DNA of 34,324 bases. It comes from a virus (taxonomy: Duplodnaviria > Caudoviricetes). The position numbers and the translations under genes were made by a program. The stretch's first letter is position 1. Every line of letters begins with the position of its first letter. This document shows, piece by piece, positions 3,174-33,498 of this stretch. Under the pieces are notes generated by a model. The model was not told where the DNA came from. It worked only from the letters and a program-made list of their open reading frames with translations, and did no database searches. Where the stretch lies: positions 1-34,324 of the IMG/VR virus record IMGVR_UViG_3300017747_001659; one strand, given 5' to 3'.

Positions 3174-3174
3174 C

Positions 3175-4974: not shown

Positions 4975-4986
4975 GTTTTACCAGAC

Positions 4987-5591: not shown

Positions 5592-5602
5592 GGTCAACTG
5601 AA

Positions 5603-6136: not shown

Positions 6137-6143
6137 GGTAAAT

Positions 6144-6608
6144 ATGGAACTTCAAAATTGCCCTGATGTTCGTTTGGCAGAGCTAGACGACCTCCCAGAG
6201 CTTATGCGTTTAACAAAAATAGCCTGCACAGAGGACGCACAGCATACCTATGATGCTGAAAAAGTCCTTAGTGTTTTAAGGCTTCATTTTGAAAAGCGCG
6301 GTGGAGTTGTTGGCGTCGTTGGTGAGAAGGGCAAAGAATTAAAAGCCTACATCATCATGGTTATCAATGAAGTTTGGTATAGCCGCGATCACCATGTTCA
6401 GGAGTTGAGTCTGTTCGTTGCTCCCAATCATCGTCGGTCAAACTACGCCAAACAGCTTATGCAGTTTTCAAAGCAAACGTCTAATGTCTTAAATCTTGAT
6501 TTGACTATTGGCGTTCTATCAAACGAGCGGACGGCCCCGAAGGTTCGTCTTTATCAGCGTCAGTTCCCTGCGGCTGGCGCTTTCTTCGTATATCATCCTG
6601 AAGGCTAA
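6144..6608 (+). CDS. GNAT-family acetyltransferase (virion assembly associated)
   Basis: VRLAELDDLPEL, LFVAPNHRRSNYAKQLM (motif A) and RLYQR. Lies directly before the ejection genes, as in podoviruses. Confidence 0.75.
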   Translation: MELQNCPDVRLAELDDLPELMRLTKIACTEDAQHTYDAEKVLSVLRLHFEKRGGVVGVVGEKGKELKAYIIMVINEVWYSRDHHVQELSLFVAPNHRRSNYAKQLMQFSKQTSNVLNLDLTIGVLSNERTAPKVRLYQRQFPAAGAFFVYHPEG

Positions 6609-6619
6609 GGAATAATATC

Positions 6620-9600: not shown

Positions 9601-12001
9601 GATCAACCCGATGATCCGTAGCGGCAATGCTATTCGCATCGGTGAGCATGTTTTTGGGACGCCGCCTGGCGTTTCTCCGGGTGCGCGCCGTTATGCGGTT
9701 TCTGCCCCCTACGGATCTCCGCAGACGGCTCCGGTTAGTATGGCCAAAGTTCATCCGGTGACTGGTGAGCATCCGGTTGTGGCGGCTGATCAACGTCCGG
9801 TTACTCAGCCTGAACCTATGCCTTCACAGGCGGCCCCGGCTGGTAGCGTTCTTAATCGTATTAACCCCAAAGACCCGTCCGGCCCGCTTCTTGGACAGCC
9901 TCCGATCCCGCCTTCGGCCAATATGCCTCAGACGGCTCCGGCCCCGGTTAAGCCTGGATTTGGCTTTGCCAGCCTGATTAACCCGATGGGAACGGCTCAT
10001 GCTGATGAGGCTGGTCCGTCTATGCCGGAAGGCGTTATCCCGCGAATCCGTCCCGGTTTTGAGGCTATTCAGGGTCCAAGCCAGTTGGCTGGATTGCAGG
10101 CGACCAAGCAACTTAGCCCCACCTCTCTAAATGCGGCGATGGGAACACCCAAGACAGGCATTTCGGGTTTGGACATGGAGCGGTTTACGCCTCCCGGAAT
10201 GGCTGGCGACCGCGATTTGATGGGCGCGCAGCCGCAGGGATTTGGCACATTTGCCCCGTCTGATTTCGGTCCTGAAGCTTCTAAGCCGCAGGCTCCTTGG
10301 GAGTCTCCGGTCATTGCCGAAAGTGGGCCTGAGAGGGCCGCTCCGTCTCCCGCTCCCAAGAGGGCCGAACCTCAAGCTCCGGTTGGTGAGAAGGGCAAGT
10401 TCTTCGGTGATTACCGTGATTACGAACCTTGGGCCAGTGACCCGATTGGCAAGGCTCTTGACGATATCATGGGTGAAAAGCCCATGTCCTCGCACAAGGG
10501 CGCGTCTATGTGGGACGTTGGCGGCGGCGAAACTCAGGGCGGCGGCTTTGACCTTGGCGACATTGGCGATCTGTTCAAGCAATATGGGGGCCGCGTTGGA
10601 ATGGCTGATGGCGGCGATCCGCTGGCCAATATTGATCCTGAAATGTTCAGCGAAGAACCAATGTCAGAAGATCAGTCTGGGTTTACGCCGGAAGCGCTTT
10701 CCGCCGATGATCAGGTTGATCCTAATGATCGCATCGTTGCCACGGATAGACCGGAACAGCGTGAACAGCCGCAGCAGCAACAGCCAGGCTTTGGTGGTCT
10801 GACTTCTCCGATTACTGGCAAGCCTATGGTTTGGGGCCCGGCGTCTCAGGCGCTTCTAGCGGCTGGACTTGGCATGATGGCTTCCGACCGTGTCAACCCG
10901 CTTCAGGCGATTGGCGAGGGCGGTTTGCGCGGCCTTGAGTATTATCAGAGTGCGTCTGCACAGGAGAAGGCCCAGCAGGCTGCTGAGGCCCGCTTGGCCC
11001 GTGAGATGGAACAGCGTAAAACTGCCGAACAGCATTGGCAAACGGAACAGCAGCATAAGCGCAATGTTCTTGAAGCCATGGAGCGCGCTCGTGCCGCCGG
11101 CAAGATTGGGGTTATCGGAACCGATATGAACGGCTATCCCATTCGCGGTTGGGTTTCCGGTGAGAAAGCAGGGCAGCCTCTTGATTCATCCGAATTGTTA
11201 CCAAGCACAATTAAGACTGGCGTAGAAGGGTTGCATGGAGAAGATTATCTAAACACTCTTCCGGGTGATATGGCTCCTACTGTTAAGGCGATTGCTGAAG
11301 GAAAAATGTCCATCCCTCCCGGTAGGTATGGAATGCCATTGCGAAAAGCTGTTACTCAGTATGATCCTGACTATTCAGAACAGCGTAAAAAGGTTCGCGA
11401 TTCTTTTGACTCCACAGATTTCAATAAAGCTGGAGGTCAAATTATTGCTGGCAATACAGCGCTTGGCCATCTTGGCGAATTGTCTGATGCAGCCCATGCT
11501 CTTGGCAATAGAGGGTTGAAGGCATGGAATTGGGCTAGGCAAACTGGCAAAAGTTTAACTTTTGGAAATCCTGAACTTGAGGTTTTCCAAACTGTTAAAG
11601 ACAGGTTTAACGAAGAAGCAACAAAATTTTATCGCGGAACTGGCGGAACAGAAGCTGACATTAAGCGCGCTCTTGATCGTTTAGATGCGGCTAAAACTCC
11701 ACAAGAACTTGATGCTGTTATTGCCGAAGAATCAAAGCTATTTGAAAGTAAAATCAAGTCATTGGAAGATCAATGGCGGAAAACCATGAAATCAGATGCC
11801 ATCGAAACTGGTGGCGACGTTAATTATGAAGTTGTTCGTGGGCACGCCAAGGAAGCGCTAGATAAAATACGCGCAAGAACATCTGGAGAAATTGGCGCAA
11901 CTGAACTTCCGCCTCCTGAAAAACGTCAGGTTGGTATGGAATGGAAGAATAAACACGGCAAGACGATGATTTGGGATGGCAACGGCTGGAGGCCAAAATA
12001 A
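6620..12001 (+). CDS. large DNA ejection/internal virion protein with S74-like autoproteolytic domain and SleB-like cell wall hydrolase domain
   Basis: Gln/Ala-rich N-terminus (NPYQQNVI, GAYGGDR). SDRDDKTDI...GPMAQDIE starts at 7547. ARTVAREAANQGDKGMAAVAHAIKNR...NQFSPWN (Hydrolase_2-like) at about 9260-9660. Confidence 0.8.
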   Translation: MGTKGGSGGGSNQMGFQATTSTYTPNPEAMQAYRQALGMAENVASIPYEAYQGQMTAGFTPDQIAAFQGTREMQGMAQPYINAATSAVNQSMNLADPRNFTPAALQQYYNPYQQNVIESSKAMMAQQNAQQQADLTARAIQQGAYGGDRSGVARAALMGQQALANQQVLAGLQQQGYQQAVSQYNQQQQQAIGAAQQGAYSLGQLGLQGQQAALQGIQALLGTGGMQQQLGQQQLTAAYNQWLQSRAYPYQQANFYAGIASGIAPNMGGTTNTMGIGNSQTQQQQASGGGGGAGMLTSALSFLPMLFGGSDRDDKTDIQYLGKDPDTGEKLYSYRYKGDPKSYPKVVGPMAQDIEKDDPDRVREVGGHKIVEGLGHLSPSQREGRANGGSSIYGSPTVDPTAYQKSPYEANQAFDPGFKTGLEAVIDPAMANQIARSRWVSQQPDESQSQQTIDEQMQYRNPEYNLFPYFQDGQQSQSPFDGNAERPQMYADGGGVGGLGDLMKAKTPFGAAAPYVEALPITPGKAHIPEPPRMNWLPGLPGGGPSGGGGGGGGSGGGGGMPKLPKMGGSKAASAGAAAPEAAAAAQSPEAASSAPTPEAATAAPATEAAAAPAPDMGAAAAPAMDAGLGGLGGGIGDIFSGLGGMLPMFNHGGRVHMDGGGAAGAAGPSGAIGSSGFEGALGAGVGAIPGLIGQEGTGTLGSLMPSFKPAPTKGPMGDMSYKGWLDRAMMLDPGPQTTPEEQGQPSLPKPGSQPPRPFMPGEMQSKVVGEQNKGIDPMLMMGMGKMGGNLAMSTMLSNQQASNDAKSLQKEYQQKRADILATPQAPAGYSQSLASNMFNPHTGLFNVNYGTYYMPHYADGGRVGMADGGDPTRYQPTSRDLDYWARTVAREAANQGDKGMAAVAHAIKNRLESGRYGRSIADVVTAHNQFSPWNYKMRGTHNDPRLLSVNSPEYKKAMEIVQGVASGKIPNPIGSAVNFANPALSSSRSLRTWINPMIRSGNAIRIGEHVFGTPPGVSPGARRYAVSAPYGSPQTAPVSMAKVHPVTGEHPVVAADQRPVTQPEPMPSQAAPAGSVLNRINPKDPSGPLLGQPPIPPSANMPQTAPAPVKPGFGFASLINPMGTAHADEAGPSMPEGVIPRIRPGFEAIQGPSQLAGLQATKQLSPTSLNAAMGTPKTGISGLDMERFTPPGMAGDRDLMGAQPQGFGTFAPSDFGPEASKPQAPWESPVIAESGPERAAPSPAPKRAEPQAPVGEKGKFFGDYRDYEPWASDPIGKALDDIMGEKPMSSHKGASMWDVGGGETQGGGFDLGDIGDLFKQYGGRVGMADGGDPLANIDPEMFSEEPMSEDQSGFTPEALSADDQVDPNDRIVATDRPEQREQPQQQQPGFGGLTSPITGKPMVWGPASQALLAAGLGMMASDRVNPLQAIGEGGLRGLEYYQSASAQEKAQQAAEARLAREMEQRKTAEQHWQTEQQHKRNVLEAMERARAAGKIGVIGTDMNGYPIRGWVSGEKAGQPLDSSELLPSTIKTGVEGLHGEDYLNTLPGDMAPTVKAIAEGKMSIPPGRYGMPLRKAVTQYDPDYSEQRKKVRDSFDSTDFNKAGGQIIAGNTALGHLGELSDAAHALGNRGLKAWNWARQTGKSLTFGNPELEVFQTVKDRFNEEATKFYRGTGGTEADIKRALDRLDAAKTPQELDAVIAEESKLFESKIKSLEDQWRKTMKSDAIETGGDVNYEVVRGHAKEALDKIRARTSGEIGATELPPPEKRQVGMEWKNKHGKTMIWDGNGWRPK

Positions 12002-13776
12002 TGGCTGATTATCTCTCTGACGAAGAAGCCATGAACTATGGCGCTCCAGTTGAAGGCCAAGTTACACCTATGTCAGATGCGCAAGCTGCTGGATTTGGCG
12101 ATCAAGAGCAAGGTATGCGCGAACAGGCTCAGGCTAATCGTGGATATCTTCCCCAAGTCGGTGCGTTTGTAACGGGCGTAGGACAAACCATCCCGTTTTC
12201 TAAGGATATTGCGGCTGGAGTCAACGTCTTAAGATCTGAATTAGGCGGCCATCCTGCCGGAGTTCCAGAACAAGGAACATTTGGCGAGAAATTTGAAGCG
12301 GCAAAGCGCGCGCAGGAGCAGGCTCAAAAAGTTCTTGGCGAAGAATTTCCTTGGACGCAGGCTGGTGGAACGGCTGCTGGCATTGGCGCTCAGATCATGG
12401 CTCCCGGCACCAGAGCTTTAGCCGCTGGTGAGCGGGCTGCTGCTGAGATGGCTGGTGAAGCGGTTCCTAGAGCGCTGGCTCCGGCTGCCCGTGGGGCTGT
12501 CCATGTCGGCACAGGCGCTGGTGTTGGTGCGGCCTATGGCGCTGGTGAAGGCGTGACGGCTGATGAGCGTATGCAGAATGCTCTTATTGGCGCTGGCATT
12601 GGTGCGGCTGGATCGGCTGCTGCTCCTATTGTTGGGACGATAGCTAGGCCGATTGGGCAAAGGCTTGGGCTGGTTAAGCCAACTCCCGGCATTATGTCCA
12701 AGGATGAGTTGTTTGACGCTGCCCGTGATGCTTATCGTGCGTCTGAGCAGCAGGGCATTATGGTTCAGCCTACTGAACTTAGAAATGCTTATGACAACAT
12801 AAAAAACAATCTTACGAACCTTGGCTATCATCCCAAAAATCAGCCTGAAGTCCAAGTTGCGTTAGATGAGCTTTACAAGCTTTCTATGCCCACAATGCAG
12901 GGTAGGCCGAATTATACGACGCTGAAGGGTATTGATATTATCAATCAAATGGCCCGAAATGCTTCGTCCAGCCCTAATCCGCAAACGCGTCTTATGGGTA
13001 AGGCGTTCCACGAAGGTATAGATGATCTTTTAGGTGGCCTTAATCCTAAAAACGTCATTGGAGGGAATGCGCCTGAAGCTGTTAAGTCTTTGCAGGAAGC
13101 TAGAAACTATTGGAAGCTTGCGCGTAAGACACAAAAAGTTGAGGATATGATTGACAATGCTATCCTTGAAACAGCTTCTACTGGATCAGGGGGCAACATC
13201 AATAACAAACTGAAGCAGGCAATTACCAAGATAATTAAAGAGAATAAGCGCAAGCCCGGTGGGTGGACTCCTGATGAGTTGGCTGCCATGCGCGCTGTTG
13301 TTGAGCCTTCTGCTGGGCGTGATTTGGCAAGGCTTATTGGAAAACTTGATCCAAGAGGCAACGGACTTCACATGCTTCTTGAGCTTGGAGCAGTTTCCCA
13401 CAATCCAAAATTTGCTCCTTTGATCGCTGGAGGACATTTAGCAAAGACATATGCGGATCGCGCCACGGCTGCCGCCGTTGATGATCTTCTTGAGCTTATC
13501 CGCGTTGGTGGTTTGAGGAAGAACATGCCCAGAAAGAACCCTACATCCGCTGTTAAGGCGAAGAATGTCGGTATAGGCGCTACGTTGTCTGGAATGCAGC
13601 CTTGGGAACGTGAGGAGCGTAAGGCTGGTGGTCGCGTCTACCCTGCCAAGCGATTGACGCTTTTGGAAAAGGCGGCTCGCAAAGCTCATGGTGAATTGGC
13701 CAATGGCTCCAAGCCTCTTATGAATATGCCGGACGAACATATAGCCCATCAACTCAATATGGCTAAGGATCAATAA
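12001..13776 (+). CDS. DNA ejection/internal virion protein
   Basis: Gly/Ala-rich membrane-active segments (GAGVGAAYGAG, GAGIGAAG). Start at ATG 12001, coupled to the upstream stop (TAATG). Confidence 0.7.
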   Translation: MADYLSDEEAMNYGAPVEGQVTPMSDAQAAGFGDQEQGMREQAQANRGYLPQVGAFVTGVGQTIPFSKDIAAGVNVLRSELGGHPAGVPEQGTFGEKFEAAKRAQEQAQKVLGEEFPWTQAGGTAAGIGAQIMAPGTRALAAGERAAAEMAGEAVPRALAPAARGAVHVGTGAGVGAAYGAGEGVTADERMQNALIGAGIGAAGSAAAPIVGTIARPIGQRLGLVKPTPGIMSKDELFDAARDAYRASEQQGIMVQPTELRNAYDNIKNNLTNLGYHPKNQPEVQVALDELYKLSMPTMQGRPNYTTLKGIDIINQMARNASSSPNPQTRLMGKAFHEGIDDLLGGLNPKNVIGGNAPEAVKSLQEARNYWKLARKTQKVEDMIDNAILETASTGSGGNINNKLKQAITKIIKENKRKPGGWTPDELAAMRAVVEPSAGRDLARLIGKLDPRGNGLHMLLELGAVSHNPKFAPLIAGGHLAKTYADRATAAAVDDLLELIRVGGLRKNMPRKNPTSAVKAKNVGIGATLSGMQPWEREERKAGGRVYPAKRLTLLEKAARKAHGELANGSKPLMNMPDEHIAHQLNMAKDQ

Positions 13777-13778
13777 AA

Positions 13779-14693
13779 ATGGTCGATACATACACAAATG
13801 GCAAACTTGGCCTTATTGAGCCTGCTCGCGGCGGATATGTTGATACATGGGATTTACCGCTTTATGCGAACTGGGAAACACTGGATGCTGCGGTATCTGG
13901 AACAACGTCAATAACACTCTCAAATTCAAATGTCGTTTTGACTGTTCCTACATATCCGACAAACGCAAACCCACCCTCTGTCTCGACATCTTGCCAAAAT
14001 TTGAGGCTTTATCTTACCGGGACATTGGCGGCCAACCTTACCATCTTTATTCCCGCAACAGTTGGTGGGTTTTGGATTGTTGATGACCGAACCACAGCAA
14101 ATGGATACACAATTACCGTTAAGACCACGGCTGTAGGATCTACAGGCGTTGCAACGGTCAATAATAAGACCCTTATAATGTGTAGCGATGGGACAAACGT
14201 GTTCCTTGCTGACAGCGGCAACGTGACAGACTCTTCTCTGCTTGTTCGCCCTGGATCTATCGTTGCCTTTGGTGGAACATCTGCTCCTGCTGGGTATTTG
14301 CTTTGCACGGGTCAGGCTGTTTCTCGAACAACATACGCAGATTTGTTTTCGGCAATAGGAACGACTTGGGGTAGCGGAGACGGGTCAACCACGTTCAATG
14401 TTCCTGATCTAGCAAATATGTTCCTTCGTGGCTCTGGGGCTTCTGCGGTTGGTGTCTATGAAGCCGACGACTTCAAGTCTCATACTCATAGCGTCACTGA
14501 TCCGGGCCATACGCACTCTATCAATTTCCAAGAGGACGACAGAACGGCAGGCACTGGAGCGTATGCGTTCCAATCGTCTAACACTGTTGTCAAAACGACA
14601 GAGAGCGCAACAACTGGAATTACAGTCTCAAGCACTGGCGGTTCGGAGACAAGGCCGAAGAACAGACGTGTCTTGTATATCATAAAGACATGA
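13779..14693 (+). CDS. tail fibre protein with phage tail collar domain
   Basis: PGSIVAFGGTSAPAGYLLCTGQAVSRTTYADLFSAIGTTWGSGDGSTTFNVPDL, HTH metal-binding motifs and ETRPKN C-terminus. Confidence 0.9.
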   Translation: MVDTYTNGKLGLIEPARGGYVDTWDLPLYANWETLDAAVSGTTSITLSNSNVVLTVPTYPTNANPPSVSTSCQNLRLYLTGTLAANLTIFIPATVGGFWIVDDRTTANGYTITVKTTAVGSTGVATVNNKTLIMCSDGTNVFLADSGNVTDSSLLVRPGSIVAFGGTSAPAGYLLCTGQAVSRTTYADLFSAIGTTWGSGDGSTTFNVPDLANMFLRGSGASAVGVYEADDFKSHTHSVTDPGHTHSINFQEDDRTAGTGAYAFQSSNTVVKTTESATTGITVSSTGGSETRPKNRRVLYIIKT

Positions 14694-14815
14694 TGCACCC
14701 CGACCACTACGAAATCCTAATGCGAATATGCAGGGGAGTAGCGATTGTGTGGGTGTGCGTCCTTTGCTTTAAGCTAGGACAAGGTGTTTTTCTTGAGTTG
14801 AGGCATATGCAATGA
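14690..14815 (+). CDS. 41-aa single-TM protein in lysis cassette (not in ORF track)
   Basis: MMHPDHYEILMRICRGVAIVWVCVLCFKLGQGVFLELRHMQ. ATGA overlaps with both neighbours. Confidence 0.55.
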   Translation: MMHPDHYEILMRICRGVAIVWVCVLCFKLGQGVFLELRHMQ

Positions 14816-15348
14816 ACATGGATTATTTCTTCGACCGCATCCGTCGTGCTGTGTTTGGCGGCAAGCTTACACAGAAACAGGTTGATGGAATTAATCGAAT
14901 CCTTGCATATCGTGACGCCAATTGGCCCAAGATGTCGGATGCTGAACTGGCATATTTGCTGGCTACAGTGACCCATGAAACGGCTTTTACTATGCAGCCG
15001 ATTACCGAAATGGGTTCTCAAGCTTATCTGAGGTCTAAAAAATATTGGCCTTGGATCGGCAGAGGATTGATTCAGATCACCTGGAAAACGAATTATGCCA
15101 AATACGGCATAACCAACCCAGATGATGCTCTCTCATGGCCTGTGGCATTGAAGGTAGCTTTTGACGGCATGATTTTTGGCCGATTTACCGGGAAAAAGCT
15201 GTCTGATTACATTAAGCCGGGTAAAACGCCTGACTTTGTTGGCGCTCGCCGGATTATTAATGGAACGGATCGGGCAAATTTGATTGCCGGTTACGCCAAC
15301 TCTTACTTAGACGCCCTCACCCAAGCCAAACAAGGACCGGGAAAATGA
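14812..15348 (+). CDS. endolysin, glycoside hydrolase family 19-like
   Basis: YLLATVTHET, GRGLIQITWKTNY and ARRIING motifs. Confidence 0.85.
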   Translation: MNMDYFFDRIRRAVFGGKLTQKQVDGINRILAYRDANWPKMSDAELAYLLATVTHETAFTMQPITEMGSQAYLRSKKYWPWIGRGLIQITWKTNYAKYGITNPDDALSWPVALKVAFDGMIFGRFTGKKLSDYIKPGKTPDFVGARRIINGTDRANLIAGYANSYLDALTQAKQGPGK

Positions 15349-15485
15349 AAGAAACTTTCGCATATCTGCTGATGGCAGTCATGTATTCTGTCATGCTGTT
15401 GAGTGTTAGTATGTTGGCAGGCTGCGAAAGCGCCAAATTCTATGAGTGTTTGGCGAGGGATCGAACATCAAACCCTTGTAATTAG
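15345..15485 (+). CDS. 46-aa lipoprotein (not in ORF track)
   Basis: MKETFAYLLMAVMYSVMLLSVSMLAG-C lipobox. ATGA overlap with the endolysin stop. Confidence 0.6.
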   Translation: MKETFAYLLMAVMYSVMLLSVSMLAGCESAKFYECLARDRTSNPCN

Positions 15486-15494
15486 GAGAACACG

Positions 15495-15698
15495 ATGAAT
15501 AAGCTTCTTGTTAACTGGAAAACGACCGTTTCTGGCCTGATCCCTCTGGCTGCGTATGGCCTGAACTATTTTGGTCTGTGGCCCAGCGTTATTCCTCTGC
15601 CTCCCTTCGATCAGGTTTGGCCGTTTGTTCTGGCTATCGTTGGCATTGGTGGTTCTGCCAAGGATGCTAACGTGACCGGCGGAACGGTTCAGCAGTGA
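15495..15698 (+). CDS. holin
   Basis: AGGAG RBS. NWKTT.SG motif, two hydrophobic segments and AKD.NVTGG tail. Confidence 0.65.
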   Translation: MNKLLVNWKTTVSGLIPLAAYGLNYFGLWPSVIPLPPFDQVWPFVLAIVGIGGSAKDANVTGGTVQQ

Positions 15699-15910
15699 GT
15701 ATTTTGATCTCAGTCCTCATAGGCGTCCTGATATTGGTATATCTGCTTGTGCGGGTAGCCATGGCCGTGTCTGAGGAAATGGGAAAGATTGAGGAACAGA
15801 AAGAGCGTCTAAAAAAAGACAAGGACTTGGCCGACAAGCGCGCTGCGGAAATGCTAAAGGAGAAAACCCGTGGCGAGGTTGTTGACGATCTTCTTAATGG
15901 CAAGTTTTAG
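15695..15910 (+). CDS. i-spanin-like (Rz-like) protein
   Basis: N-terminal TM plus charged coiled coil. Overlaps a downstream lipoprotein gene. Confidence 0.6.
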   Translation: MSILISVLIGVLILVYLLVRVAMAVSEEMGKIEEQKERLKKDKDLADKRAAEMLKEKTRGEVVDDLLNGKF

Positions 15911-16091
15911 TCTGGCTGGATGCTCTACGCAGCTTAACACGGGGAGCGGTTGCCCCCCGTTGGTTCAATACAGCGCCCAAACCCAGCGTCGGGCGGCTGA
16001 TGAGCTTGAGCGGCTTCCTAAAGATTCCGCCGTTGCTCAGATGATTGTGGACTATGGCAAAACTCGCGCAGCATGTAGAATTACTCAGTAG
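15870..16091 (+). CDS. o-spanin-like (Rz1-like) lipoprotein
   Basis: LAGC lipobox, CPPL motif and C-terminal Cys. Overlaps the i-spanin 3' end in another frame. Confidence 0.7.
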   Translation: MARLLTIFLMASFSLAGCSTQLNTGSGCPPLVQYSAQTQRRAADELERLPKDSAVAQMIVDYGKTRAACRITQ

Positions 16092-16704
16092 TATCTTTTA
16101 CTGGTTTTGTAGCAGCAAGCTCTAAATCCCAACCCCTATCAATTCTATGTATCACTACATAGATTGGCAAATTTGTATTTAATTTATCCATTATTTGTCT
16201 AACTGTTAATTCTTCACCATTATAATTAAATTTTCTACTATTTCGCTTGTTATTATTTTGATCTTTTTGTGTTGCCCATATTACGTTTCCATTGCAATAA
16301 TTTCCATTAACATCAATTCTTTCTAAAGAATAATTTTTAGATGGCCTGCTTCCAATATCGTCTAAAAATTTAATAAAGTCATCTTTCCATTCATTGCAAA
16401 CTGTAATTCCTCGTCCTCCATATAAATTATATGATTTATTTGTTTTATTGTAACACCTAGCTTTCATATCACACCATATATTATACTCATTTAATTTACT
16501 CATATTATGTTTAGTATTTCCTATATTCGTGCAACCACACGATTTTGTTCTTCCATTAATAATATTTGCTCCTATTGCTACCCATTCTGTTCCGCAATCG
16601 CATTTACAATTCCATGTTGATTTTCCATTATTTGATGTTCCGTTTCGGGAAATAATATTAATTATCCCAAAACGTGTCCCAGACAAATCTAACGGTTTAG
16701 GCAT
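16081..16704 (-). CDS. HNH-type homing endonuclease
   Basis: DLSG.RFG, W.CKCDCG, KSCGC, W..MK.RC, YGGRGI.VC.EW and ERIDVNGNY...N..WAT...N.N motifs. Strongly AT-rich. Confidence 0.85.
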   Translation of the reverse strand: MPKPLDLSGTRFGIINIISRNGTSNNGKSTWNCKCDCGTEWVAIGANIINGRTKSCGCTNIGNTKHNMSKLNEYNIWCDMKARCYNKTNKSYNLYGGRGITVCNEWKDDFIKFLDDIGSRPSKNYSLERIDVNGNYCNGNVIWATQKDQNNNKRNSRKFNYNGEELTVRQIMDKLNTNLPIYVVIHRIDRGWDLELAATKPVKDTTE

Positions 16705-18118: not shown

Positions 18119-18793
18119 TCATCTCCATTCGCTTTCTGTTTTATAATCTTCTGCCCGCTCAAGATCCTTTCGGCACGGCGGTATCCAGACAAATTTAGTG
18201 CGTGGATCATCATTCCTAATTTCCGGCCTTCCCCATACAAGCCAACAGTAAGCCGTTGCTGTTGAGGCATTTTTGTCAACGCGACCTTTGACCATGGGAA
18301 CTCTTTCACTAAATTGTCCAATGATGTCTGGGGGCTCACTCTTATAGAGTTGATTAAATCGTCGAACTCCTTCCACGAAGCTGGTTCTAACAAGAACTGC
18401 AACAGATCTTCCGGCTCTCTTGCCATGGTTAATAAAATCATGCGCTCTTTTGAATGGTGGGTTGGTAATAACCCATTCAAAATCAGATGGTTCAAACTCG
18501 CCGGATGCAAAATCACATGACCCGAACTGTCCGTTCCAACCGTAATCTGCGATGTCTGTGGACACAACGGATGAGAAATATTCGTTAAGTGGACGGGACA
18601 TAAATCCTCGACCGCAGGCGGGTTCCCATACACGAGAGCGCTGGATTCCATGACCGAACTCACTGGGTTTGATGACATGCTCCATAAGGGCGCGCGTGGC
18701 CCAAGGAGGCGTAGGGAAGTCGTCTAGGCTGTTCAGAGGCTCATGCCGCCTAGCTACGACCGCGTGGGACATGCCGGAGCCAAGATCAACCAT
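18119..18793 (-). CDS. DNA N6-adenine methyltransferase
   Basis: D.FPTP.W, VWEPACGRG (motif I) and ITNPPF (motif IV). Confidence 0.85.
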   Translation of the reverse strand: MVDLGSGMSHAVVARRHEPLNSLDDFPTPPWATRALMEHVIKPSEFGHGIQRSRVWEPACGRGFMSRPLNEYFSSVVSTDIADYGWNGQFGSCDFASGEFEPSDFEWVITNPPFKRAHDFINHGKRAGRSVAVLVRTSFVEGVRRFNQLYKSEPPDIIGQFSERVPMVKGRVDKNASTATAYCWLVWGRPEIRNDDPRTKFVWIPPCRKDLERAEDYKTESEWR

Positions 18794-19461: not shown

Positions 19462-19482
19462 GATCTTCCTCCATTCCCCACC

Positions 19483-19513
19483 AATATATTCTTATCTTAC
19501 ATATTGTCAAATT
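19483..19513 (-). promoter_or_regulatory. promoter with palindromic operator
   Basis: TTGACA-16-TATATT on the minus strand. Operator TATCTTACA-tat-TGTCAAATT at 19493-19513. Confidence 0.7.
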
Positions 19514-19862: not shown

Positions 19863-20025
19863 TTTCGTTCTCCTTCCGCACTTCAATAATAGTGTTTTCT
19901 TTCGGGCCAGTGCGCTGCCCAAAAGGATCTTTGCGGATTCTCTGCCTAATGACACGCAACACGCCTGACGCAGACAAAGCCATGAACAGGCCGGTAAGAC
20001 CCATCCCAATGTAGACCAAACTCAT
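19852..20025 (-). CDS. 57-aa membrane protein (not in ORF track)
   Basis: MSLVYIGMGLTGLFMALSASGVLRVIRQR... ATGA overlap with the upstream stop. Confidence 0.5.
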   Translation of the reverse strand: MSLVYIGMGLTGLFMALSASGVLRVIRQRIRKDPFGQRTGPKENTIIEVRKENENES

Positions 20026-20336: not shown

Positions 20337-20364
20337 GTCATCCTCCATTCTGCTAGTGTTTGCT

Positions 20365-20395
20365 AGCATACGCATATCTTACAGGATGTCAATTA
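20365..20395 (-). promoter_or_regulatory. promoter with palindromic operator
   Basis: TTGACA-16-TATGCT on the minus strand. Operator TATCTTACA-gga-TGTCAATTA at 20375-20395. Confidence 0.7.
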
Positions 20396-22051: not shown

Positions 22052-22688
22052 TTTGATTCTCCTTTATCTTGGTTTTGACTTGTTCAACTTCTTCGTTCAG
22101 TTCCTTTATAAACGTCTGGATCATCTCCCTCATGGTTGAAATGAACATTTCATCCCGTTCGACGCGCTGGACATAAATCTGTCCACCTTCCGGCATACGG
22201 GGATCGTAACAAACAAAGTCACACCATTTGCGGCCTGTGCAATCCAGTTGCATTTGTATCTGCGTCAGCCATTTCTGAGGTATGTTGTCCGTCAGAAAAA
22301 TCTCAAGGAATGTCGCTGTATTGGGACACTTAATTTCGACAATCCCGTCATCTCCAACAAGACCATCAGGAGAGCAACCAGCGCCCAGAATATCAGGATG
22401 GTCAACAAAGCCGACTTCAACGACCGGGTCAAAGATCGTGGACGCATATAATGCACGAGCGTTAGGCTCCTGTTCGGTTCCCCATTTCATCGCCTCAGAA
22501 ACAAAACCAACAGCAGTCGTGTTGGTCAATATCTCAAGCAAAAGTTCAGCTTTATAATTGGAGCGACTAGCGGCAAAACCTGATTTTGTCCTAGCCATAA
22601 CGTCCGCAACGCGGGAGGCAGTAACTTTGCCCCTCCGCGCCGCAAACCATTCGTCCGTCCCTTGGACAATGACGTTTGGATTATTCAT
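22044..22688 (-). CDS. YqaJ-like / lambda exonuclease family
   Basis: QGTDEW...R.G..TAS, AMKWG...E, CSPDGL and EIKCP...QIQ.Q motifs. Confidence 0.92.
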   Translation of the reverse strand: MNNPNVIVQGTDEWFAARRGKVTASRVADVMARTKSGFAASRSNYKAELLLEILTNTTAVGFVSEAMKWGTEQEPNARALYASTIFDPVVEVGFVDHPDILGAGCSPDGLVGDDGIVEIKCPNTATFLEIFLTDNIPQKWLTQIQMQLDCTGRKWCDFVCYDPRMPEGGQIYVQRVERDEMFISTMREMIQTFIKELNEEVEQVKTKIKENQNA

Positions 22689-22923: not shown

Positions 22924-22936
22924 ATTGGTTCTCCAT

Positions 22937-23143
22937 TCAAGCCGCGAGACGAATTATGTCCCGCTTTATTTTGGCGTTCTGTTGCCGGAACACCTCCCGA
23001 CCTTTGGCTGCTTCCCAAGCGCGAGATATGCACTTGCCCCAAGACCAGCCAAGGCCAAGCCTTTGCGACTGCCGCCATTGACGATGTGCATCGCGCATGA
23101 CGGCCTTCCTGTCGTATTTGGGTTTAGTCGTAATCTTCCTCAT
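22937..23143 (-). CDS. small basic early protein
   Basis: AVMRDAH...W..CISRAW.AAK pattern seen in phage early proteins. GGATAGGG RBS. Confidence 0.65.
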   Translation of the reverse strand: MRKITTKPKYDRKAVMRDAHRQWRQSQRLGLGWSWGKCISRAWEAAKGREVFRQQNAKIKRDIIRLAA

Positions 23144-23438
23144 AGTCCCTATCCTTCGCCTTGTAGTTTACGGAATCGTTAACGGCTTCGTAAATATTTG
23201 CGTTGTTCGTCAACGAGTGAAACAGCTTTCCGGTAACGACAAAGTCCGGCCCTAAGTCACCTTCCCGATATTCGCGCAGGATAATGTTATCAATATCCCA
23301 TTCAGGCCCCCAACCGGGATCGCCACCGTAGTTGTAGTCAATCAGGGCGGGAGAGCCCCAATCGGAAACGGTGTATTCAATCACGGCCTCAAATTCGCGG
23401 CCCATGAAGTTCAGGTAGGTGTCAGTTTCGTATGTCAT
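23124..23438 (-). CDS. acidic hypothetical protein, first gene of leftward operon
   Basis: Start at ATG 23438 with a GAATGGAG RBS. Confidence 0.65.
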   Translation of the reverse strand: MTYETDTYLNFMGREFEAVIEYTVSDWGSPALIDYNYGGDPGWGPEWDIDNIILREYREGDLGPDFVVTGKLFHSLTNNANIYEAVNDSVNYKAKDRDYEEDYD

Positions 23439-23461
23439 AGCGGATCTCCATTCCGAACGCA

Positions 23462-23529
23462 TATATACGCTAGCATATGATAGCATGTCAACGGGGGTCT
23501 TGACACTTTGTAAGATATACCCTTAACGT
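23462..23529. promoter_or_regulatory. divergent promoter pair with operator
   Basis: Leftward TTGACA (23491-23486). Rightward TTGACA(23500-23505)-18-TAACGT. Operator GTCTTGACA-ctt-TGTAAGATA at 23497-23517. Confidence 0.7.
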
Positions 23530-23535
23530 ATGGTT

Positions 23536-23724
23536 ATGACTAGAAAAGCCCTCCCCAATCCCAAAACAACCGAAAAGATCGAACAGGTCGCCATTCAGCT
23601 TGGCGCTTCGTCAGGTCAGATTTATCAGTGGCGTCGTCGCGGAGTTTCTGCGGCGTGGCGAATCAAAATTGTTCAAGCGTCCAGCGGTAAAGTTAAACTT
23701 ACGGACTTCCCAGAGGTGATATAA
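23536..23724 (+). CDS. Cro-like HTH transcriptional regulator
   Basis: VA.QLG.S...IYQWRRRGV...W...I...S.GKV motif of Cro/YdaS-like proteins. First gene of the rightward operon (alternative ATG 23530). Confidence 0.75.
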   Translation: MTRKALPNPKTTEKIEQVAIQLGASSGQIYQWRRRGVSAAWRIKIVQASSGKVKLTDFPEVI

Positions 23725-24088: not shown

Positions 24089-24480
24089 TCAAGCGCAGAC
24101 AGGTAGAATCCGGTATTCAACGCGGGATCGTGCAATACATCCGTTCCGTGTTGCCAAGGGCTGTTTTGATGGCAATCCCCAACGGTTCCCAGCGCACGGC
24201 CTCTGGTCGCCCGGCTAATGCTGTTCCGGGTTTCTTGCCGGGAGCGCCTGACTTGATATTGGCTTTACCTAACAAAGAGGTGATTTGGATAGAGGTTAAA
24301 TCGCCCATCGGACGCTTGAGCGATAATCAAAAACACGTTCACGCCATGCTTGAAACGATAGGCCACAAGATCATCTTGGCGCGTTCGATTGACGATATTC
24401 GTGAGGCTTTTGCGTATTACGGTATAAAAACGAAGGACACATGGAATGGAGAACTTAAAGATGGCGAAGGAAGCGATTAA
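24082..24480 (+). CDS. VRR-NUC domain nuclease / Holliday junction resolvase-like
   Basis: E..IQ..I, IPNG, PGAPDL and WIEVKS..GRLS.NQ motifs. Confidence 0.88.
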   Translation: MVIKRRQVESGIQRGIVQYIRSVLPRAVLMAIPNGSQRTASGRPANAVPGFLPGAPDLILALPNKEVIWIEVKSPIGRLSDNQKHVHAMLETIGHKIILARSIDDIREAFAYYGIKTKDTWNGELKDGEGSD

Positions 24481-27144: not shown

Positions 27145-27684
27145 ATGTTAACACAACTTTATAGGCATTTTGATAAAAATGGACAGCTTCTTTATGTTGG
27201 AGTCTCCCTATCAACGGTAGTTCGGCTCTCTCAACACAGGGAATATTCAAAATGGTATGATCAAATCGCAAATGTAACAATTCAAAATTATAACACCCGT
27301 GAAGAAGCGTTAGAAGCGGAAACTCAAGCAATAAAAAATGAAAACCCAAAATACAATATTAAAAAGACAAAAATAAAAGAAAAGCTAATAGAGCAAAATA
27401 CTCGAATTATTAAGGAAAGAATTGAGGAATCAAAAAAAGATATTATGAAAAGGGCAGTTAATTTTGACATGATTTATACGGTTGAAGATTTGGAAAGAGA
27501 GTTAAGAATAAGCAAAATGATAATTAAAAAAATGATAGATGATAAAAAATTAGGAGCTATTGTATTTAGCAAAATGCGTAAAACAAGTCATGGAATGAGG
27601 GATATAAAAAAATATTACGTCACCGGCTGGCAGCTAATAGACTTCATAGAAAATTGTCAGGCAACGGGTATTTATCCTCAATAG
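27145..27684 (+). CDS. GIY-YIG endonuclease with C-terminal HTH
   Basis: LYRHFD..G.LLYVG.S...R..QH and AL.AE..AIK.E.PKYN motifs. YTVEDL...L.IS HTH. Very AT-rich; AGGAG RBS. Confidence 0.85.
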   Translation: MLTQLYRHFDKNGQLLYVGVSLSTVVRLSQHREYSKWYDQIANVTIQNYNTREEALEAETQAIKNENPKYNIKKTKIKEKLIEQNTRIIKERIEESKKDIMKRAVNFDMIYTVEDLERELRISKMIIKKMIDDKKLGAIVFSKMRKTSHGMRDIKKYYVTGWQLIDFIENCQATGIYPQ

Positions 27685-27700
27685 ACGATAGGGGACTAGA

Positions 27701-29266
27701 ATGGAGCTTAGAGATTATCAGTCGGAGGCTATTCTTAACCTCCGCGAAGCCATCGTAAGGAAAGAAAAACCTGTCCTGTCGGCACCGACCGGATCGGGCA
27801 AAACGCTTATCGCTAGTGAGATATTTTCGCTGGCTAGAGCAAAGGAAAAGCGCGTTGTATTTGTCGTGCCTTTCCTGTCTCTGATTAATCAAACATGGAA
27901 GGCGTTTGAACGCGCCGGTATTGATGGCCGCGATATGGGCGTCATACAGGGCGCGCATGAACTGACGGATTATACTAAGCCGGTTCAGATTGCTTCGGCT
28001 CAAACGCTGGAGCGTCGTCCTCTGTTGCCAAAGGCCGATATTGTCATCTTTGATGAATGCCACATCAATAGGAAAATATATCAGCGCTGGATGAATGAAG
28101 CGCCTGACGTTTATTTCATAGGTCTTTCAGCTACGCCCTGGGCCGTTGGAATGGACGCCTTGTGGACGCAGATGATTATTGTGTCTACGTTGAGTGAACT
28201 GATTCAGAAAGGCCACTTGTCTGAGTTTCGGTATTTTGCTCCCGCACAGCCGGATCTGTCCAAAGTCCGTGTTGCTCGTGGCGATTATGTTGAGGCCGAT
28301 CTTGAGCAAGTGATGAGCAATACCGATTTGATTGCGGATATTGTGAATACATGGCGAGAAAAGGCCAATGAAAGACCGACGTTTTGTTTCTGTGTAAACC
28401 GCCGCCATGCACAGGAGGTTCAGCATCAATTTATTCGGGCTGGCATTCCGGCTGGATATGTTGACGCCTATACGAAGATTGAGGAGCGGGAAGCTTTAGT
28501 CGAACAACTCCGCCGGGGCGACCTGAAAGTCATCTGCAATATTGGCACGATGACGACGGGCGTTGATGCCCCGTTTGTGTCTTGCATTATTCTGGCTAGG
28601 CCGACCAAGTCTGAAATGTTGTTCATTCAGATTGTGGGCCGTGGCTTGAGGAAGGATGAGGCGAGCGGCAAAACTGATTGCCTGATACTGGATCATTCCA
28701 ACACGGCGCTGAATCTTGGTCGCCCGGATGAGATTTATTATGAGACTTTTCGGTCGGGGAAGTCTGCGACGTCGGGAGAGAAAAATAAGAAAGAGAAAGA
28801 GGAGAAGAAGCCAAAACTTTGCCCGCACTGTAAGTTTGTGATGCTCCCGAAGGAGAAAGAGTGCCCGTCCTGTGGATTTGTCATGCCGCCTCCCGTCAGT
28901 GAAATTGAAGTAGCTGATGGGGAGCTTACAGAACTTGGGTTTGCCGGGGTCAGGGCAAAGAATAAAGCTTTGCGCGACGAAAAGCAGGCTTTCTATTCTG
29001 GGTTGCTTTGGATAGCCCGTGACAGGGGGTATAAAACCGGGTGGGCTGATAACAAATATCGGGCTAAGTTTAAGGTATGGCCGCGTGGACTGGACGGGGT
29101 TGCATCTTTCCCTGATGCTTCTGTATTTAATTTTGTGAAGGCTCAAAACATAGCTTGGGCAAAGTCCAAGAATAATCCCGGCAATTCGGCTAAGGAGGCG
29201 ATGTCTCACGAATCAGTCCGGGATAGAGTTCGCGCACTATTTTCTCATGGGAGGCACAATGGCTAG
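27701..29266 (+). CDS. superfamily 2 DNA helicase with Zn finger
   Basis: LRDYQ, PTGSGKT, DECH, SAT, TTGVD, QIVGRGLR and CPHC...CPSC motifs. Confidence 0.92.
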   Translation: MELRDYQSEAILNLREAIVRKEKPVLSAPTGSGKTLIASEIFSLARAKEKRVVFVVPFLSLINQTWKAFERAGIDGRDMGVIQGAHELTDYTKPVQIASAQTLERRPLLPKADIVIFDECHINRKIYQRWMNEAPDVYFIGLSATPWAVGMDALWTQMIIVSTLSELIQKGHLSEFRYFAPAQPDLSKVRVARGDYVEADLEQVMSNTDLIADIVNTWREKANERPTFCFCVNRRHAQEVQHQFIRAGIPAGYVDAYTKIEEREALVEQLRRGDLKVICNIGTMTTGVDAPFVSCIILARPTKSEMLFIQIVGRGLRKDEASGKTDCLILDHSNTALNLGRPDEIYYETFRSGKSATSGEKNKKEKEEKKPKLCPHCKFVMLPKEKECPSCGFVMPPPVSEIEVADGELTELGFAGVRAKNKALRDEKQAFYSGLLWIARDRGYKTGWADNKYRAKFKVWPRGLDGVASFPDASVFNFVKAQNIAWAKSKNNPGNSAKEAMSHESVRDRVRALFSHGRHNG

Positions 29267-29789
29267 GGCTGGTCGCAAGCGCAAAGAAGGGGATCGGTAT
29301 CCCGCTGGCCAAATCAAGCCTGTTGAGGAAGGCCCAGCCCCGGCTGCCATAAAGCGCCTTCGGAACGCCGCCATGATGGGGATGTGTGACCCTCAGTGGG
29401 GTAGCGTGGCGGGCCTTTGTTACCTCCAGAAGATGATTGACGACATAGAGTATGAGGCCGCCAAGCGATTCGGAGATCTTCACGCTCAATATATCGGGGT
29501 GATTGGTGGACCTCGCCCTCCCAAGACATCCACCGGAGAGCGCCCCGCCAGGGCTGCTGATGTCGATGTTGATACGGAACAAGGTGATCGGGAAGCCAAG
29601 CGCCATATATCGGTTATGACCCGATACAATGACGCCCATACCGCATTGCTTATGGTCAGTCCGGCGACTGAGGCCGATTTGATTCGGTTCTGTGCTATGC
29701 CGGGGGAATCGCCAAATGGCTACGAAGGCATGGTCCGGGTTCGGTCTGGCCTCCGGGCGCTGGCGGCTATCTGGAAAATATCCAAATAA
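29259..29789 (+). CDS. phage protein, possible late transcription regulator
   Basis: MARAGRKRK...R.P.G basic N-terminus and helical C-terminus (R.GL.ALA). Last gene of the replication operon. Function inferred from position only. Confidence 0.55.
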   Translation: MARAGRKRKEGDRYPAGQIKPVEEGPAPAAIKRLRNAAMMGMCDPQWGSVAGLCYLQKMIDDIEYEAAKRFGDLHAQYIGVIGGPRPPKTSTGERPARAADVDVDTEQGDREAKRHISVMTRYNDAHTALLMVSPATEADLIRFCAMPGESPNGYEGMVRVRSGLRALAAIWKISK

Positions 29790-29811
29790 AAAAGCCCCGC
29801 CGGAGCGGGGC
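29788..29811 (-). terminator. intrinsic terminator
   Basis: GCCCCGC-4 nt-GCGGGGC stem followed by a U-tract on the minus strand, between convergent genes. Confidence 0.8.
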
Positions 29812-29839
29812 AATTACCAAGGGAGGAAAATTTATCCTC

Positions 29840-30103
29840 TCATGCTTCTTGATATACGTCAAGATAGTAGACAGTGCAGTAATCGCCGCAGGGGTCCATA
29901 TAATCCCAATAGGGACGGCACTGGCCCTTGAGTGTAGAACGCTTGGCTTTCCAACCTTGGCGTATCGCGTCACGATATGCCTGATCGCGGGCTTCTTTGG
30001 CCGCTTCATCAGTAGAGTAGGGCGTCCAGTTACGATCAGCGCGCTGGGCTTTGTTGCCCCAAAGGCGGGAAAACGAAATCTGTCCGTGGTGCGTAATCAT
30101 CAT
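29840..30103 (-). CDS. small early protein
   Basis: Has its own promoter/operator, GAATGGAG RBS and terminator. Confidence 0.7.
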   Translation of the reverse strand: MMITHHGQISFSRLWGNKAQRADRNWTPYSTDEAAKEARDQAYRDAIRQGWKAKRSTLKGQCRPYWDYMDPCGDYCTVYYLDVYQEA

Positions 30104-30128
30104 TGCTCTCCATTCGTTGATGATGATT

Positions 30129-30157
30129 TATCATACACCTTGTAAGATAGATTGCAA
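30129..30157 (-). promoter_or_regulatory. promoter with palindromic operator
   Basis: TTGCAA-16-TATGAT on the minus strand. Operator TATCATACA-cct-TGTAAGATA at 30129-30149. Confidence 0.75.
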
Positions 30158-30207
30158 TAGGGGTGGCAAAATATTTTTTGACTAAATCCCTAACAAACTA
30201 TAAATAA

Positions 30208-30310
30208 GAGGCAGAACCATCTGGTTCTCCTTTCTAACTTATTCGCCGGTCCCTATCCCGGTGATAAGCCCCGCCAGCGTCATCTCCATTCCGCTGGTGG
30301 GGCCTTTTTA
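30208..30310 (+). ncRNA. candidate anti-Shine-Dalgarno sRNA (three hairpins, ending in an intrinsic terminator)
   Basis: Upstream TTGACT (30178) and AT-rich -10. Three stems, two with G-U pairs valid only on the + strand. CU-rich loops and U-tract at 30305-30309. Confidence 0.6.
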
Positions 30311-30511
30311 TTTACGATACTTTTCGTATGTGGCTTTGGCCTTGGCGAAGTGGCCGTTGGTTTCAGATTCGATTTCAGCTTCCGCAAACGGCTTGATTGC
30401 CTCCATAAGCTCATCGACCTTTAACTCTAACTTAGCCATTTCCCAGCGAAGTTGGGCTTCGCCAGATTTATGGGTTCGGATCGTGGTGACGTCAAAGATC
30501 GTGCGTTTCAT
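30308..30511 (-). CDS. hypothetical protein
   Basis: 67-aa ORF with L.EAIKPFA motif shared with the 32902-34324 ORFs. Confidence 0.55.
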   Translation of the reverse strand: MKRTIFDVTTIRTHKSGEAQLRWEMAKLELKVDELMEAIKPFAEAEIESETNGHFAKAKATYEKYRK

Positions 30512-30921: not shown

Positions 30922-31035
30922 TTTCCGTCTCCATTCTTCCAGTCTCCCAGGCGCTACGCTACCAGCGCTGTCGGCATTCCGGCTGTTGGCCCGCGCGAGC
31001 CTAGACCTTCTCTGAGAGTGAACCACAATCACTTT

Positions 31036-31089
31036 TTTCTGAAATTTTGTCAAATACCACTTGCATCCTATCTGACAATGTGTAAGATA
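31036..31089. promoter_or_regulatory. divergent promoters with two operators
   Basis: Operators TTTCTGAAA-ttt-TGTCAAATA (31036-31056) and TATCTGACA-atg-TGTAAGATA (31069-31089). Rightward TTGCAT-16-TAAGAT; leftward TTGACA at 31053-31048. Confidence 0.75.
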
Positions 31090-32089: not shown

Positions 32090-32118
32090 TTGACGGTTAT
32101 CTGACAATCTGTATAATC
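32090..32118 (+). promoter_or_regulatory. promoter with palindromic operator
   Basis: TTGACG-16-TATAAT. Operator TATCTGACA-atc-TGTATAATC at 32098-32118. Confidence 0.8.
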
Positions 32119-32146
32119 AAATCATCAAAGTGAATGGAGAATCACG

Positions 32147-32911: not shown

Positions 32912-33384
32912 ATGATTATGCCGACTTAATTGTCCAACTTCGCTCCGGCGAGATTGGATACGAGTTAGCTGCCGCCGACGCATTAGAGGCGCAGGCGCGA
33001 CGGATTTCGGAGTTGGGAAAGATGCTCGCCGTTCATCGTCTGGCGGTTGATGTTGACGCCTTGAAAGCCCGCATCGCGGAACTTGAAGCGGAAGTTGCTT
33101 GCAGCATTGTGAGCGGGAACGACGCGCACGAACGGGCGCTTGGGTATGTGTATGAGTTAAATGATGCTGCGGAGATGCTGGCGAACCAAGCGCGGACGCT
33201 TAAAGAGTGGCACGAGCGTATTGTGGAACTTACTGCGGCGCTGAAACCGTTTGCGGACATAGACGTTTCTGACTGCGCTGATGGCCACGTTTGCTATTTC
33301 TGGGGATTTGGCGAGAACGCTGGAAAGGTTAGCGCAGCCGAAGTCCGCGCCGCCCGCGCCGCTTATCTGGGAGAGAAGAAATGA
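32902..33384 (+). CDS. modular (ead/Ea22-like) early protein
   Basis: DY.DLI..LR, AADALEAQARRI.EL, ALKPFA and VRAARAA modules. Confidence 0.7.
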   Translation: MEMNDYADLIVQLRSGEIGYELAAADALEAQARRISELGKMLAVHRLAVDVDALKARIAELEAEVACSIVSGNDAHERALGYVYELNDAAEMLANQARTLKEWHERIVELTAALKPFADIDVSDCADGHVCYFWGFGENAGKVSAAEVRAARAAYLGEKK

Positions 33385-33498
33385 CTGACTACACCGACCT
33401 AATCGCCCGGCTGCGAGAAGATGACCCGGCCACTTGGCCGCCATGCGATGAAGCCGCCGACGCATTAGAGGCGCAGGCGCGACGGATCGCGGAGTTGG
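32971..33498 (+). repeat. direct repeat pair 32971-33016 / 33453-33498
   Basis: 35 identical nt (GCCGCCGACGCATTAGAGGCGCAGGCGCGACGGAT); 44/46 identical overall. Confidence 0.9.

Follow-up and report, generated by a model that had tools for sequence, protein, structure and literature searches.

What does a conserved stretch of non-coding DNA downstream of a 176-aa gene do for a phage that carries it? We analyzed all 34,324 nt of the available DNA (hereafter the window), a 34-kb fragment of a phage of roughly 62 kb, the size of its complete relatives G002 and G003. A sequence-only reading had proposed that positions 30178–30310 encode a small RNA whose loops are antisense to ribosome-binding sites of the phage's own early and middle genes, possibly for RNA-based immunity or as an early-to-late switch. 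Structural genes occupy positions 1–16,000 and are followed by a leftward recombination block and then by a small helix-turn-helix (HTH) gene, GcrA-like and DnaA-C-like genes, a helicase gene and the 176-aa gene. The GcrA-like gene presumably indicates an alphaproteobacterial host, and weak matches in the genome collection fall in Hyphomicrobiales and sphingomonads. The capsid protein is 91–97% identical across five relatives and ∼42% identical to that of the nearest cultured phage. The features discussed below are collected in Table 1.

Table 1. Coordinates of the predicted RNA, its putative target sites and associated features in the window
Feature	Position	Strand	Remark
Predicted ∼100-nt small RNA	30212..30311	+	Fold z -7.8, conserved in close relatives
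Predicted sigma70-type promoter	30178..30206	+	TTGAC, 18 nt, TAAATA (-10-like element, 30201-30206); spacing kept in 10/10 phages
Hairpin 1 (AGAACC/GGTTCT)	30213..30228	+	Stem invariant, 5/5 close relatives
Site 1	30222..30240	+	GGUUCUCC seed and linker ending ACUU; complementary to GGAGAAC-type starts
Hairpin 2	30243..30264	+	Loop UCCCUAUC at 30250-30257; loop 10/10 to gene 23143 start
Hairpin 3 / intrinsic terminator	30268..30309	+	Loop UCAUCUCCAUUC at 30280-30291, then U-tract
Hairpin 3 proper	30268-30303	+	
U-tract	30305-30309	+	
176-aa gene	29259..29789	+	Always precedes the RNA; found in each of 10 phages examined
Convergent 67-aa gene	30308..30511	-	Stop codon overlaps the RNA's U-tract; orthologs in G001-G003
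64-aa HTH gene	23509..23724	+	Operator-like box in own promoter; weak HTH matches
Operator-like inverted repeats over early -35	19493-19510, 20375-20393, 23497-23517, 30141-30149, 31069-31089, 32098-32106		
GAATGGAG tag, gene starting 18114	18119..18130	-	12/12 to loop 3
GAATGGAG tag, gene 19461	19469..19476	-	
Site 1 match, gene 19862	19867..19875	-	Best site 1 duplex in window
GAATGGAG tag, gene 20336	20343..20350	-	
Site 1 match, Erf-like gene 22051	22057..22065	-	
GAATGGAG tag and site 1 match, gene 22923	22926..22938	-	
Loop 2 match, gene 23143	23145..23154	-	
GAATGGAG tag, gene 23438	23444..23455	-	12-nt match
GAATGGAG tag, GcrA-like gene 24461	24444..24451	+	
Helicase start	27687..27706	+	GATAGGG (loop 2 match), then GAATGGAG over start codon
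GAATGGAG tag, gene 30103	30108..30115	-	Cassette absent in G001-G003
GAATGGAG tag, gene 30921	30929..30936	-	
GAATGGAG tag, gene 32147	32132..32139	+	

Folding of 30210–30312 reproduced the three hairpins and the U-tract where they had been placed, with an AUCU loop in hairpin 1 and none of 200 shuffles equally stable, and the two G-U stem pairs noted on the plus strand are present. Over the wider interval 30178–30320, the folding z is -6.7 on the plus strand and -4.8 on the minus strand, and because raw folding energies on the two strands are similar, folding energy alone does not fix the strand. The promoter-like element upstream also held up: a scan with the E. coli consensus missed it, and its TTGAy-N17/18-TA spacing is kept in all 10 phages examined, with the spacer diverging while the hexamers stay. 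The seeds of the RNA are predicted to be unpaired, yet half of site 1 sits paired within hairpin 1. Rfam returned no match to the element at gathering score, the best weak match over the RNA being sX13 (17 bits versus a cut-off of 50), and three RNA runs from the same study contained no contig over the element, which counts neither for nor against the RNA. Judged by sequence alone, the stretch is non-coding and conserved, has its own predicted promoter and intrinsic terminator, and is evidently a real element with a phage-specific target tag. A minus-strand peptide over the RNA was rejected as a candidate, its frame and length not being kept: the mini-ORF has 12 codons in the window, 17 in G001, 10 in G002 and 8 in G003, and its start codon is absent in G004, G005 and G007.

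The unit of promoter, hairpin, ACUU linker and terminator lies directly 3′ of the 176-aa gene in 10 of 10 phages. A sequence descriptor of this unit matched once each in the window and G001–G008, missed the unit visible by eye in G016 (where it gave a false match in the capsid gene), and had no matches in six records without a detected 176-aa gene, several of which are fragments. Hairpin 1 starts at the predicted 5′ end in eight of nine genomes, G007 being less clean. Across the RNA region, 133 bases are 95–96% identical in G002 and L139, and identity is 88% over 158 bases in G001; conservation of the RNA is far stronger than that of its flanks and adjoining genes. Within hairpin 3, CTCCATTC is kept in five of five close relatives, with the loop's 5′ bases altered in G003, and the invariant ACUU of the linker is accounted for by no proposed pairing. 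The stem covariance that had been suggested as a check yielded no compensatory change, with 0 of 30 stem pairs doubly changed among five close copies that are too alike to reveal covariation. Beyond these relatives, cultured phages gave only four chance 34-nt matches to the element; a loose pattern found 119 loci, and blastn placed the element only in known relatives; and 11 metagenome pattern matches comprised the window itself, the relative L139 and nine chance hits. Among 20 capsid-linked records, one carries a 176-aa gene. The 176-aa protein has no Pfam or PHROG match, its structure model (pLDDT 78) has no PDB match, and one DUF6456 cluster appeared at rank 19 in a protein atlas. After more distant 176-aa homologs, at L156:10500-10640, L157:7390-7510 and L158:5410-5520, a promoter-like element, a terminator and a hairpin with a CCUCCC loop are seen, without an Rfam match. 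L193, a helicase-related phage without the 176-aa gene, carries many short palindromic repeats (AATAAGCATGCTT then T) at 9476-9620 and 10165-10525.

The link between this RNA and the rest of the genome is a short tag at gene starts. Loop 3 contains CUCCAUUC, the exact complement of the 8-mer GAATGGAG, which occurs 11 times in the window compared with 1.15 ± 1.05 times in shuffles, none of 100 shuffles reaching 11. Nine copies lie 4–9 nt upstream of a non-structural ATG, a tenth runs across the start codon of the helicase gene, and the eleventh is the complement within the RNA itself; all 10 copies outside the RNA are thus at non-structural gene starts and none at structural ones. An unbiased count placed GAATGGAG first among start-associated 8-mers in the window and likewise in G001, G002 and G003. 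Three alphaproteobacterial genomes, none known as the host, contain the tag at ∼3 per Mb versus 9 in 34 kb of the window, and the tag followed by ATG 10–12 times per 3.4–4.9 Mb. A literature search for GAATGGAG found no paper.

The individual matches claimed earlier, 12 of 12 nt for loop 3 and its flank at genes 18114 and 23438 and 10 of 10 nt for loop 2 at gene 23143, are all exact. The 9-nt matches at 22926-22934, 22057-22065 and 19867-19875 are exact as well, and they cover part of hairpin 1 (its 3′ arm) in addition to the linker. A third 12-nt match (1714-1725) is intragenic and involves the stem of hairpin 3, so a long match taken singly may arise by chance. A concern raised at the outset was that the matches might be no better than those of a generic anti-Shine-Dalgarno sequence. 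When the CUCC core of loop 3 was fixed and its flanks were shuffled, only 23 of 5000 shuffles were as good on 32 non-structural GGAG starts, the native flanks beating the other 4977, compared with 416 of 1000 on nine structural starts; loop 3 matches the one 4-nt flank that occurs most often at starts in this phage. Predicted duplexes were stronger at 43 non-structural than at 16 structural starts for loop 3 (p = 0.0015) and for site 1 (p = 0.004), with no difference for loop 2 (p = 0.14), in a comparison that ignores accessibility and for which seven called ORFs were dropped and eight starts were added by hand, one of them (30712) misplaced. In the window, four of the six best site 1 duplexes fall on true gene starts (19862, 24461, 22923 and 31116). 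Taken by itself, site 1 is weak in the individual genomes of the close clade, where 117, 407, 354 and 110 of 2000 shuffles were as good. Complementarity to target ribosome-binding sites beyond the generic core was therefore clear for loop 3 and mixed for site 1. In G003, the ortholog of gene 22923 has lost the tag and has a 10-nt site 1 match. Loop 2 appears weak as a pairing site, having few targets and no preference between gene classes; it is altered in G003, where the ortholog of its 10-nt target gene 23143 is absent, a single case. A shortage of GGAG at late genes was significant in only one of four genomes, using a custom gene caller. Two small genes downstream of the endolysin gene (15495 and 15870) differ from most structural genes in that their AGGAGAA starts are moderately complementary to site 1.

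If the RNA reads the tags, the two should change together, and co-variation of loops and ribosome-binding sites in related phages had been proposed as a check. The outcome was split: loop 3 and the tag occur jointly in the four closest genomes and site 1 follows the starts in several lineages, but the match fails in G005, G008 and G016. Loop 3 CUCCAUUC and the GAAT flank co-occur only in the window and G001–G003; in the 12 other records, the four flanks most often preceding GGAG do not include GAAT, and the six other RNAs are without CUCCAUUC. At site 1, GGUUCUCC accompanies GGAGAAC starts in the window and G001–G003, UUUCUCC accompanies GGAGAAAC starts in G004 and G007, and GUCUCUUC accompanies GGAGAGAC starts in G005 and G006 through one G-U pair, a match that therefore works only for a plus-strand RNA. 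The 5′ site 1, rather than loop 3, is the putative pairing site with the widest conservation. Across five lineages, pairing each RNA with its own genome came first of 120 possible assignments when site 1 was scored and second of 120 when the whole RNA was, with site and regions defined after looking. The strongest duplex anywhere in the G006 record falls on a gene start. Among eight RNAs, a genome's own whole RNA ranked 1 in the window, G004, G006 and G007, 2 in G003, 6 in G005 (on nine starts), 5–6 in G016 and 8 in G008, and so came first or second in five of eight genomes. G008 and G016, found later and forming one lineage, keep the architecture with RNAs that do not match their dominant GGAGTC starts, and a prediction of an RNA–start match that we had set beforehand for G016 failed. 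Double-centered ranks of 1/720 are not counted as support, being inflated by RNAs that match nothing well. Given G008 and G016, the RNA–start match characterizes only some members of the family, and the RNA may originally have served a different function. The next gene on the same strand in G005 and G006 has a start to which site 1 is also perfectly complementary, so that pairing in cis is an alternative there. A leftward gene array with a strong GGAGTC start flavor was seen at G008:C1:60650-67812 and G016:C1:12330-16945 (15 of 81 starts in G008), and a simple search of G008 for an RNA matching GGAGTC starts found none.

The timing of the RNA can be approached through its promoter. Since the downstream gene is convergent in the window and in G001–G004, the RNA is the promoter's only obvious product. 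The motif TGTMAGATA occurs eight times in the window compared with 0.26 expected. Most copies form one half of an inverted repeat that covers the -35 of promoters for tagged genes and for the HTH gene, whose 64-aa product we infer to be a candidate repressor of early promoters; the HTH gene looks leaderless, with a start at 23530. In G001 and G002, this operator-like half-site is also found in the RNA promoter, at an identical offset, whereas the window and G003 are without it; from this the RNA promoter would be of the early class. Because of the box shared with early promoters in G001 and G002, a strictly late version of the early-to-late switch is doubtful, and we favor delayed negative feedback on early and middle translation over it.

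Trans repression of the phage's own early and middle genes by the plus-strand RNA is, in our assessment, the most likely mechanism and a probable one. The idea of a multi-target RNA against ribosome-binding sites gains support from tag enrichment, from conservation of the RNA and its promoter spacing, and from the partial covariation of RNA and tag. It starts from what can be read off directly, namely the fold, the promoter spacing, the tag at 10 non-structural starts and its exact complement in loop 3. Host sigma70 polymerase would transcribe the ∼100-nt RNA from early infection onward, and loop 3 would pair with GAAUGGAG, site 1 with GGAGAAC and loop 2 with GAUAGGG. Pairing of the two main seeds with ribosome-binding regions of early and middle genes would block 30S binding and dampen translation of the gene group, while most structural genes would be left untouched. 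As the RNA accumulates it would act as delayed negative feedback, with the small HTH repressor shutting the same early promoters and the stable RNA silencing mRNA already made.

Other readings share parts of this evidence. An RNA that is real but acts as a general anti-Shine-Dalgarno sequence, mainly on host mRNAs, would fit the C-rich anti-Shine-Dalgarno stretches present in all family members, including G008 and G016 where the own-gene match fails, as well as the 7–24 GAATGGAG and GAAAGGAG starts per alphaproteobacterial genome; the tags would then be strong or protein-read start signals, and T4 RegB does cut GGAG in early mRNAs. We find this unlikely, as it accounts neither for the agreement of loop 3 with the most frequent 4-nt flank at this phage's starts nor for the joint occurrence of tag and loop in the same four genomes. 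Less likely again is that the locus is a leftover late-promoter leader and terminator of the lambda pR′-tR′ type, or a convergent-operon terminator zone, whose complementarity reflects inverted copies of a start cassette without any pairing. Here the distant L153 is suggestive, where a promoter-like element and a terminator come after the 176-aa homolog, with a small gene and the terminase large subunit next in line, as is the minus strand of site 1, which in the close clade reads as a perfect start region with ATG. However, the RNA is much better conserved than its flanks and neighbor genes, the minus-strand mini-ORF varies as described above, and in G002 the terminase lies ∼4 kb downstream behind convergent genes.

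Pairing could also aid translation or protect mRNAs, and the RNA promoter in G001 and G002, being of the same class as the target promoters, suggests that RNA and targets would be made together. This is very unlikely, because the GGAG core itself would be covered by the pairing, and from established sRNA biology pairing over the core is expected to occlude the ribosome. A working minus-strand RNA, with tag copies in its loops as a CsrB-like decoy for a tag-binding protein, would draw on the similar minus-strand folding energy, on an ANGGA motif (the CsrA site) in GAAUGGAG, and on possible read-through of the convergent operon to a minus-strand terminator at 29794-29811. We give it very little credence, as promoter spacing and U-tract are on the plus strand in all 10 genomes, the minus strand of G005 and G006 reads GAAG rather than GGAG, and the stem G-U pairs become A-C on that strand. 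Equally improbable is an RNA that maintains dormancy or immunity in the style of P1 c4, for which one could cite the lambda-like divergent early layout with no CI gene in the expected place, an absence that had been remarked on earlier. Tyrosine integrase, S24 repressor, resolvase and ParA (PF00589, PF00717, PF00239 and PF13614) were unmatched in three of three complete relatives, which makes RNA-based immunity unlikely, and a prophage search found no close one among five genome-collection loci (27–31% identity or short matches).

Several known systems invite comparison with the proposed trans repression. Class-wide shut-down of early mRNAs through their Shine-Dalgarno regions is performed by proteins in T4 (RegB and RegA); the logic is the same here, with RNA pairing proposed in place of protein. 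AbcR1/2 are alphaproteobacterial RNAs with C-rich anti-Shine-Dalgarno loops. The cuckoo RNAs (alpha-r14/RSs0680) are likewise alphaproteobacterial, multi-hairpin and equipped with such loops, and are defined by CCUCCUCCC in each of two to four hairpin loops (PMC4615179). The present RNA has no CCUCCUCCC loop, its loops AUCU, UCCCUAUC and UCAUCUCCAUUC differ from each other, and the cuckoo Rfam model was matched neither at gathering score nor among 18 weak matches; unlike cuckoo, it is phage-encoded, with seeds that match the phage's own tags. The c4 RNA of P1/P7 is also phage-encoded and forms three stem-loops, with exposed segments that base-pair to the phage's own mRNA and partly cover a ribosome-binding site; it is processed by RNase P and maintains lysogeny within an immunity system (PMC5320573). 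In contrast, this RNA would have about ten or more dispersed targets in phages without detected lysogeny genes, and it has no match to the Rfam c4 structure. It would thus work like an anti-Shine-Dalgarno sRNA and like c4, yet belongs to neither the cuckoo nor the c4 family. StxS, from the pR′-tR′ leader of Stx phages, is similar as a short promoter–terminator transcript 3′ of a candidate late-regulator gene, and is possibly a leader transcript turned regulatory RNA, acting on rpoS and stx1B (PMC7547250). Our RNA may have descended from a late-promoter leader in the same way. It differs from StxS in having a repeated tag as its target and in that late genes do not follow directly, same-strand late genes lying directly downstream only in L153; the 176-aa protein gave no family or fold match that would identify it as a Q-like antiterminator.

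The tag itself has a parallel in cultured phages. The start-associated sequences (SAS and ESAS) of Cluster K mycobacteriophages and Cluster EF Microbacterium phages are the same kind of over-conserved ribosome-binding-site motif confined to non-structural genes and often adjoin an inverted-repeat promoter element; the passages on SAS in four reports from 2011 to 2025 call its role unknown and name no partner RNA (PMC3203893, PMC11373665, PMC12699233, PMC7302621). One of them leaves open, where it discusses the binder, whether this is RNA or protein, and notes in four Cluster K1 phages one reverse SAS copy away from any start (PMC3203893). The window tag follows the same pattern in 10 of 10 copies outside the RNA; it differs in sequence, in host phylum and in length (8 bp versus 13 bp for SAS), and relative to the SAS reports a complementary structured RNA candidate is present in the same genome. 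The reverse SAS copy of Anaya, situated between genes 96 and 97, forms a hairpin loop with the sequence CCUCCUAUCC; 193 phage records contain the stretch around it, which shows double changes in 11 of 31 pairs. In Anaya, Angelica and Amelie, the second loop of the Cluster K element complements the start-associated sequence, and among ten aligned Cluster K phages three have the exact anti-SAS loop, four have C-rich variants and three have none. The reverse copy is absent from the right 33 kb of Pixie, 29 kb of TM4 and 37 kb of AnnaSerena. The generalization to SAS is accordingly partial. It is possible, and we offer it tentatively, that phages build private translation regulons in which a repeated tag and a small RNA mirroring it co-evolve, with SAS as the targets and the K1 reverse copy as the RNA. 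The Anaya element itself, L230:47800-47925 (about 59800-59925 of the record), is a conserved two-hairpin non-coding element in Cluster K mycobacteriophages, over which several records annotate a hypothetical gene.

The phage sRNAs treated in the relevant passages of a review act on one phage transcript or on host genes (PMC12197685). If our reading is true, one RNA acting on ten or more of its phage's own genes through a shared tag would amount to class-wide RNA control of translation, operating in a phage with no detected lysogeny genes. The proposal would also give a concrete, testable answer to the function of start-associated sequences, for which the Anaya-type hairpin offers a cultured test system in Mycobacterium smegmatis. 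We found no paper describing such an RNA; the 10,000 candidate phage RNAs of PMC10690425, whose supplements were searched in part without a match, may include the family.

Several further features of the window deserve mention. Between the 176-aa gene and the RNA promoter, 29840-30170 holds an inserted cassette for an 87-aa gene, equipped with a separate promoter, an operator box and a GAATGGAG tag; the cassette is absent in G001–G003, where the RNA promoter and the RNA are kept. On the minus strand at 29789-29870, a TTGAC, an 18-nt spacer, a -10-like hexamer, UUUCCUCCCU and a strong terminator suggest a possible second tiny RNA, kept in the window and G001–G003. Starts of the GGGAGG type are seen at the 176-aa gene (window and G001) and, in G002, at the DnaA-C-like gene. 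Three homing-type endonuclease genes (PHROG) at 1909-2472, 16081-16704 and 27145-27684 have little or no DNA match in G002, and a 46-bp direct repeat (96% identical) occurs at 32971-33016 and 33453-33498, in two adjoining small genes.
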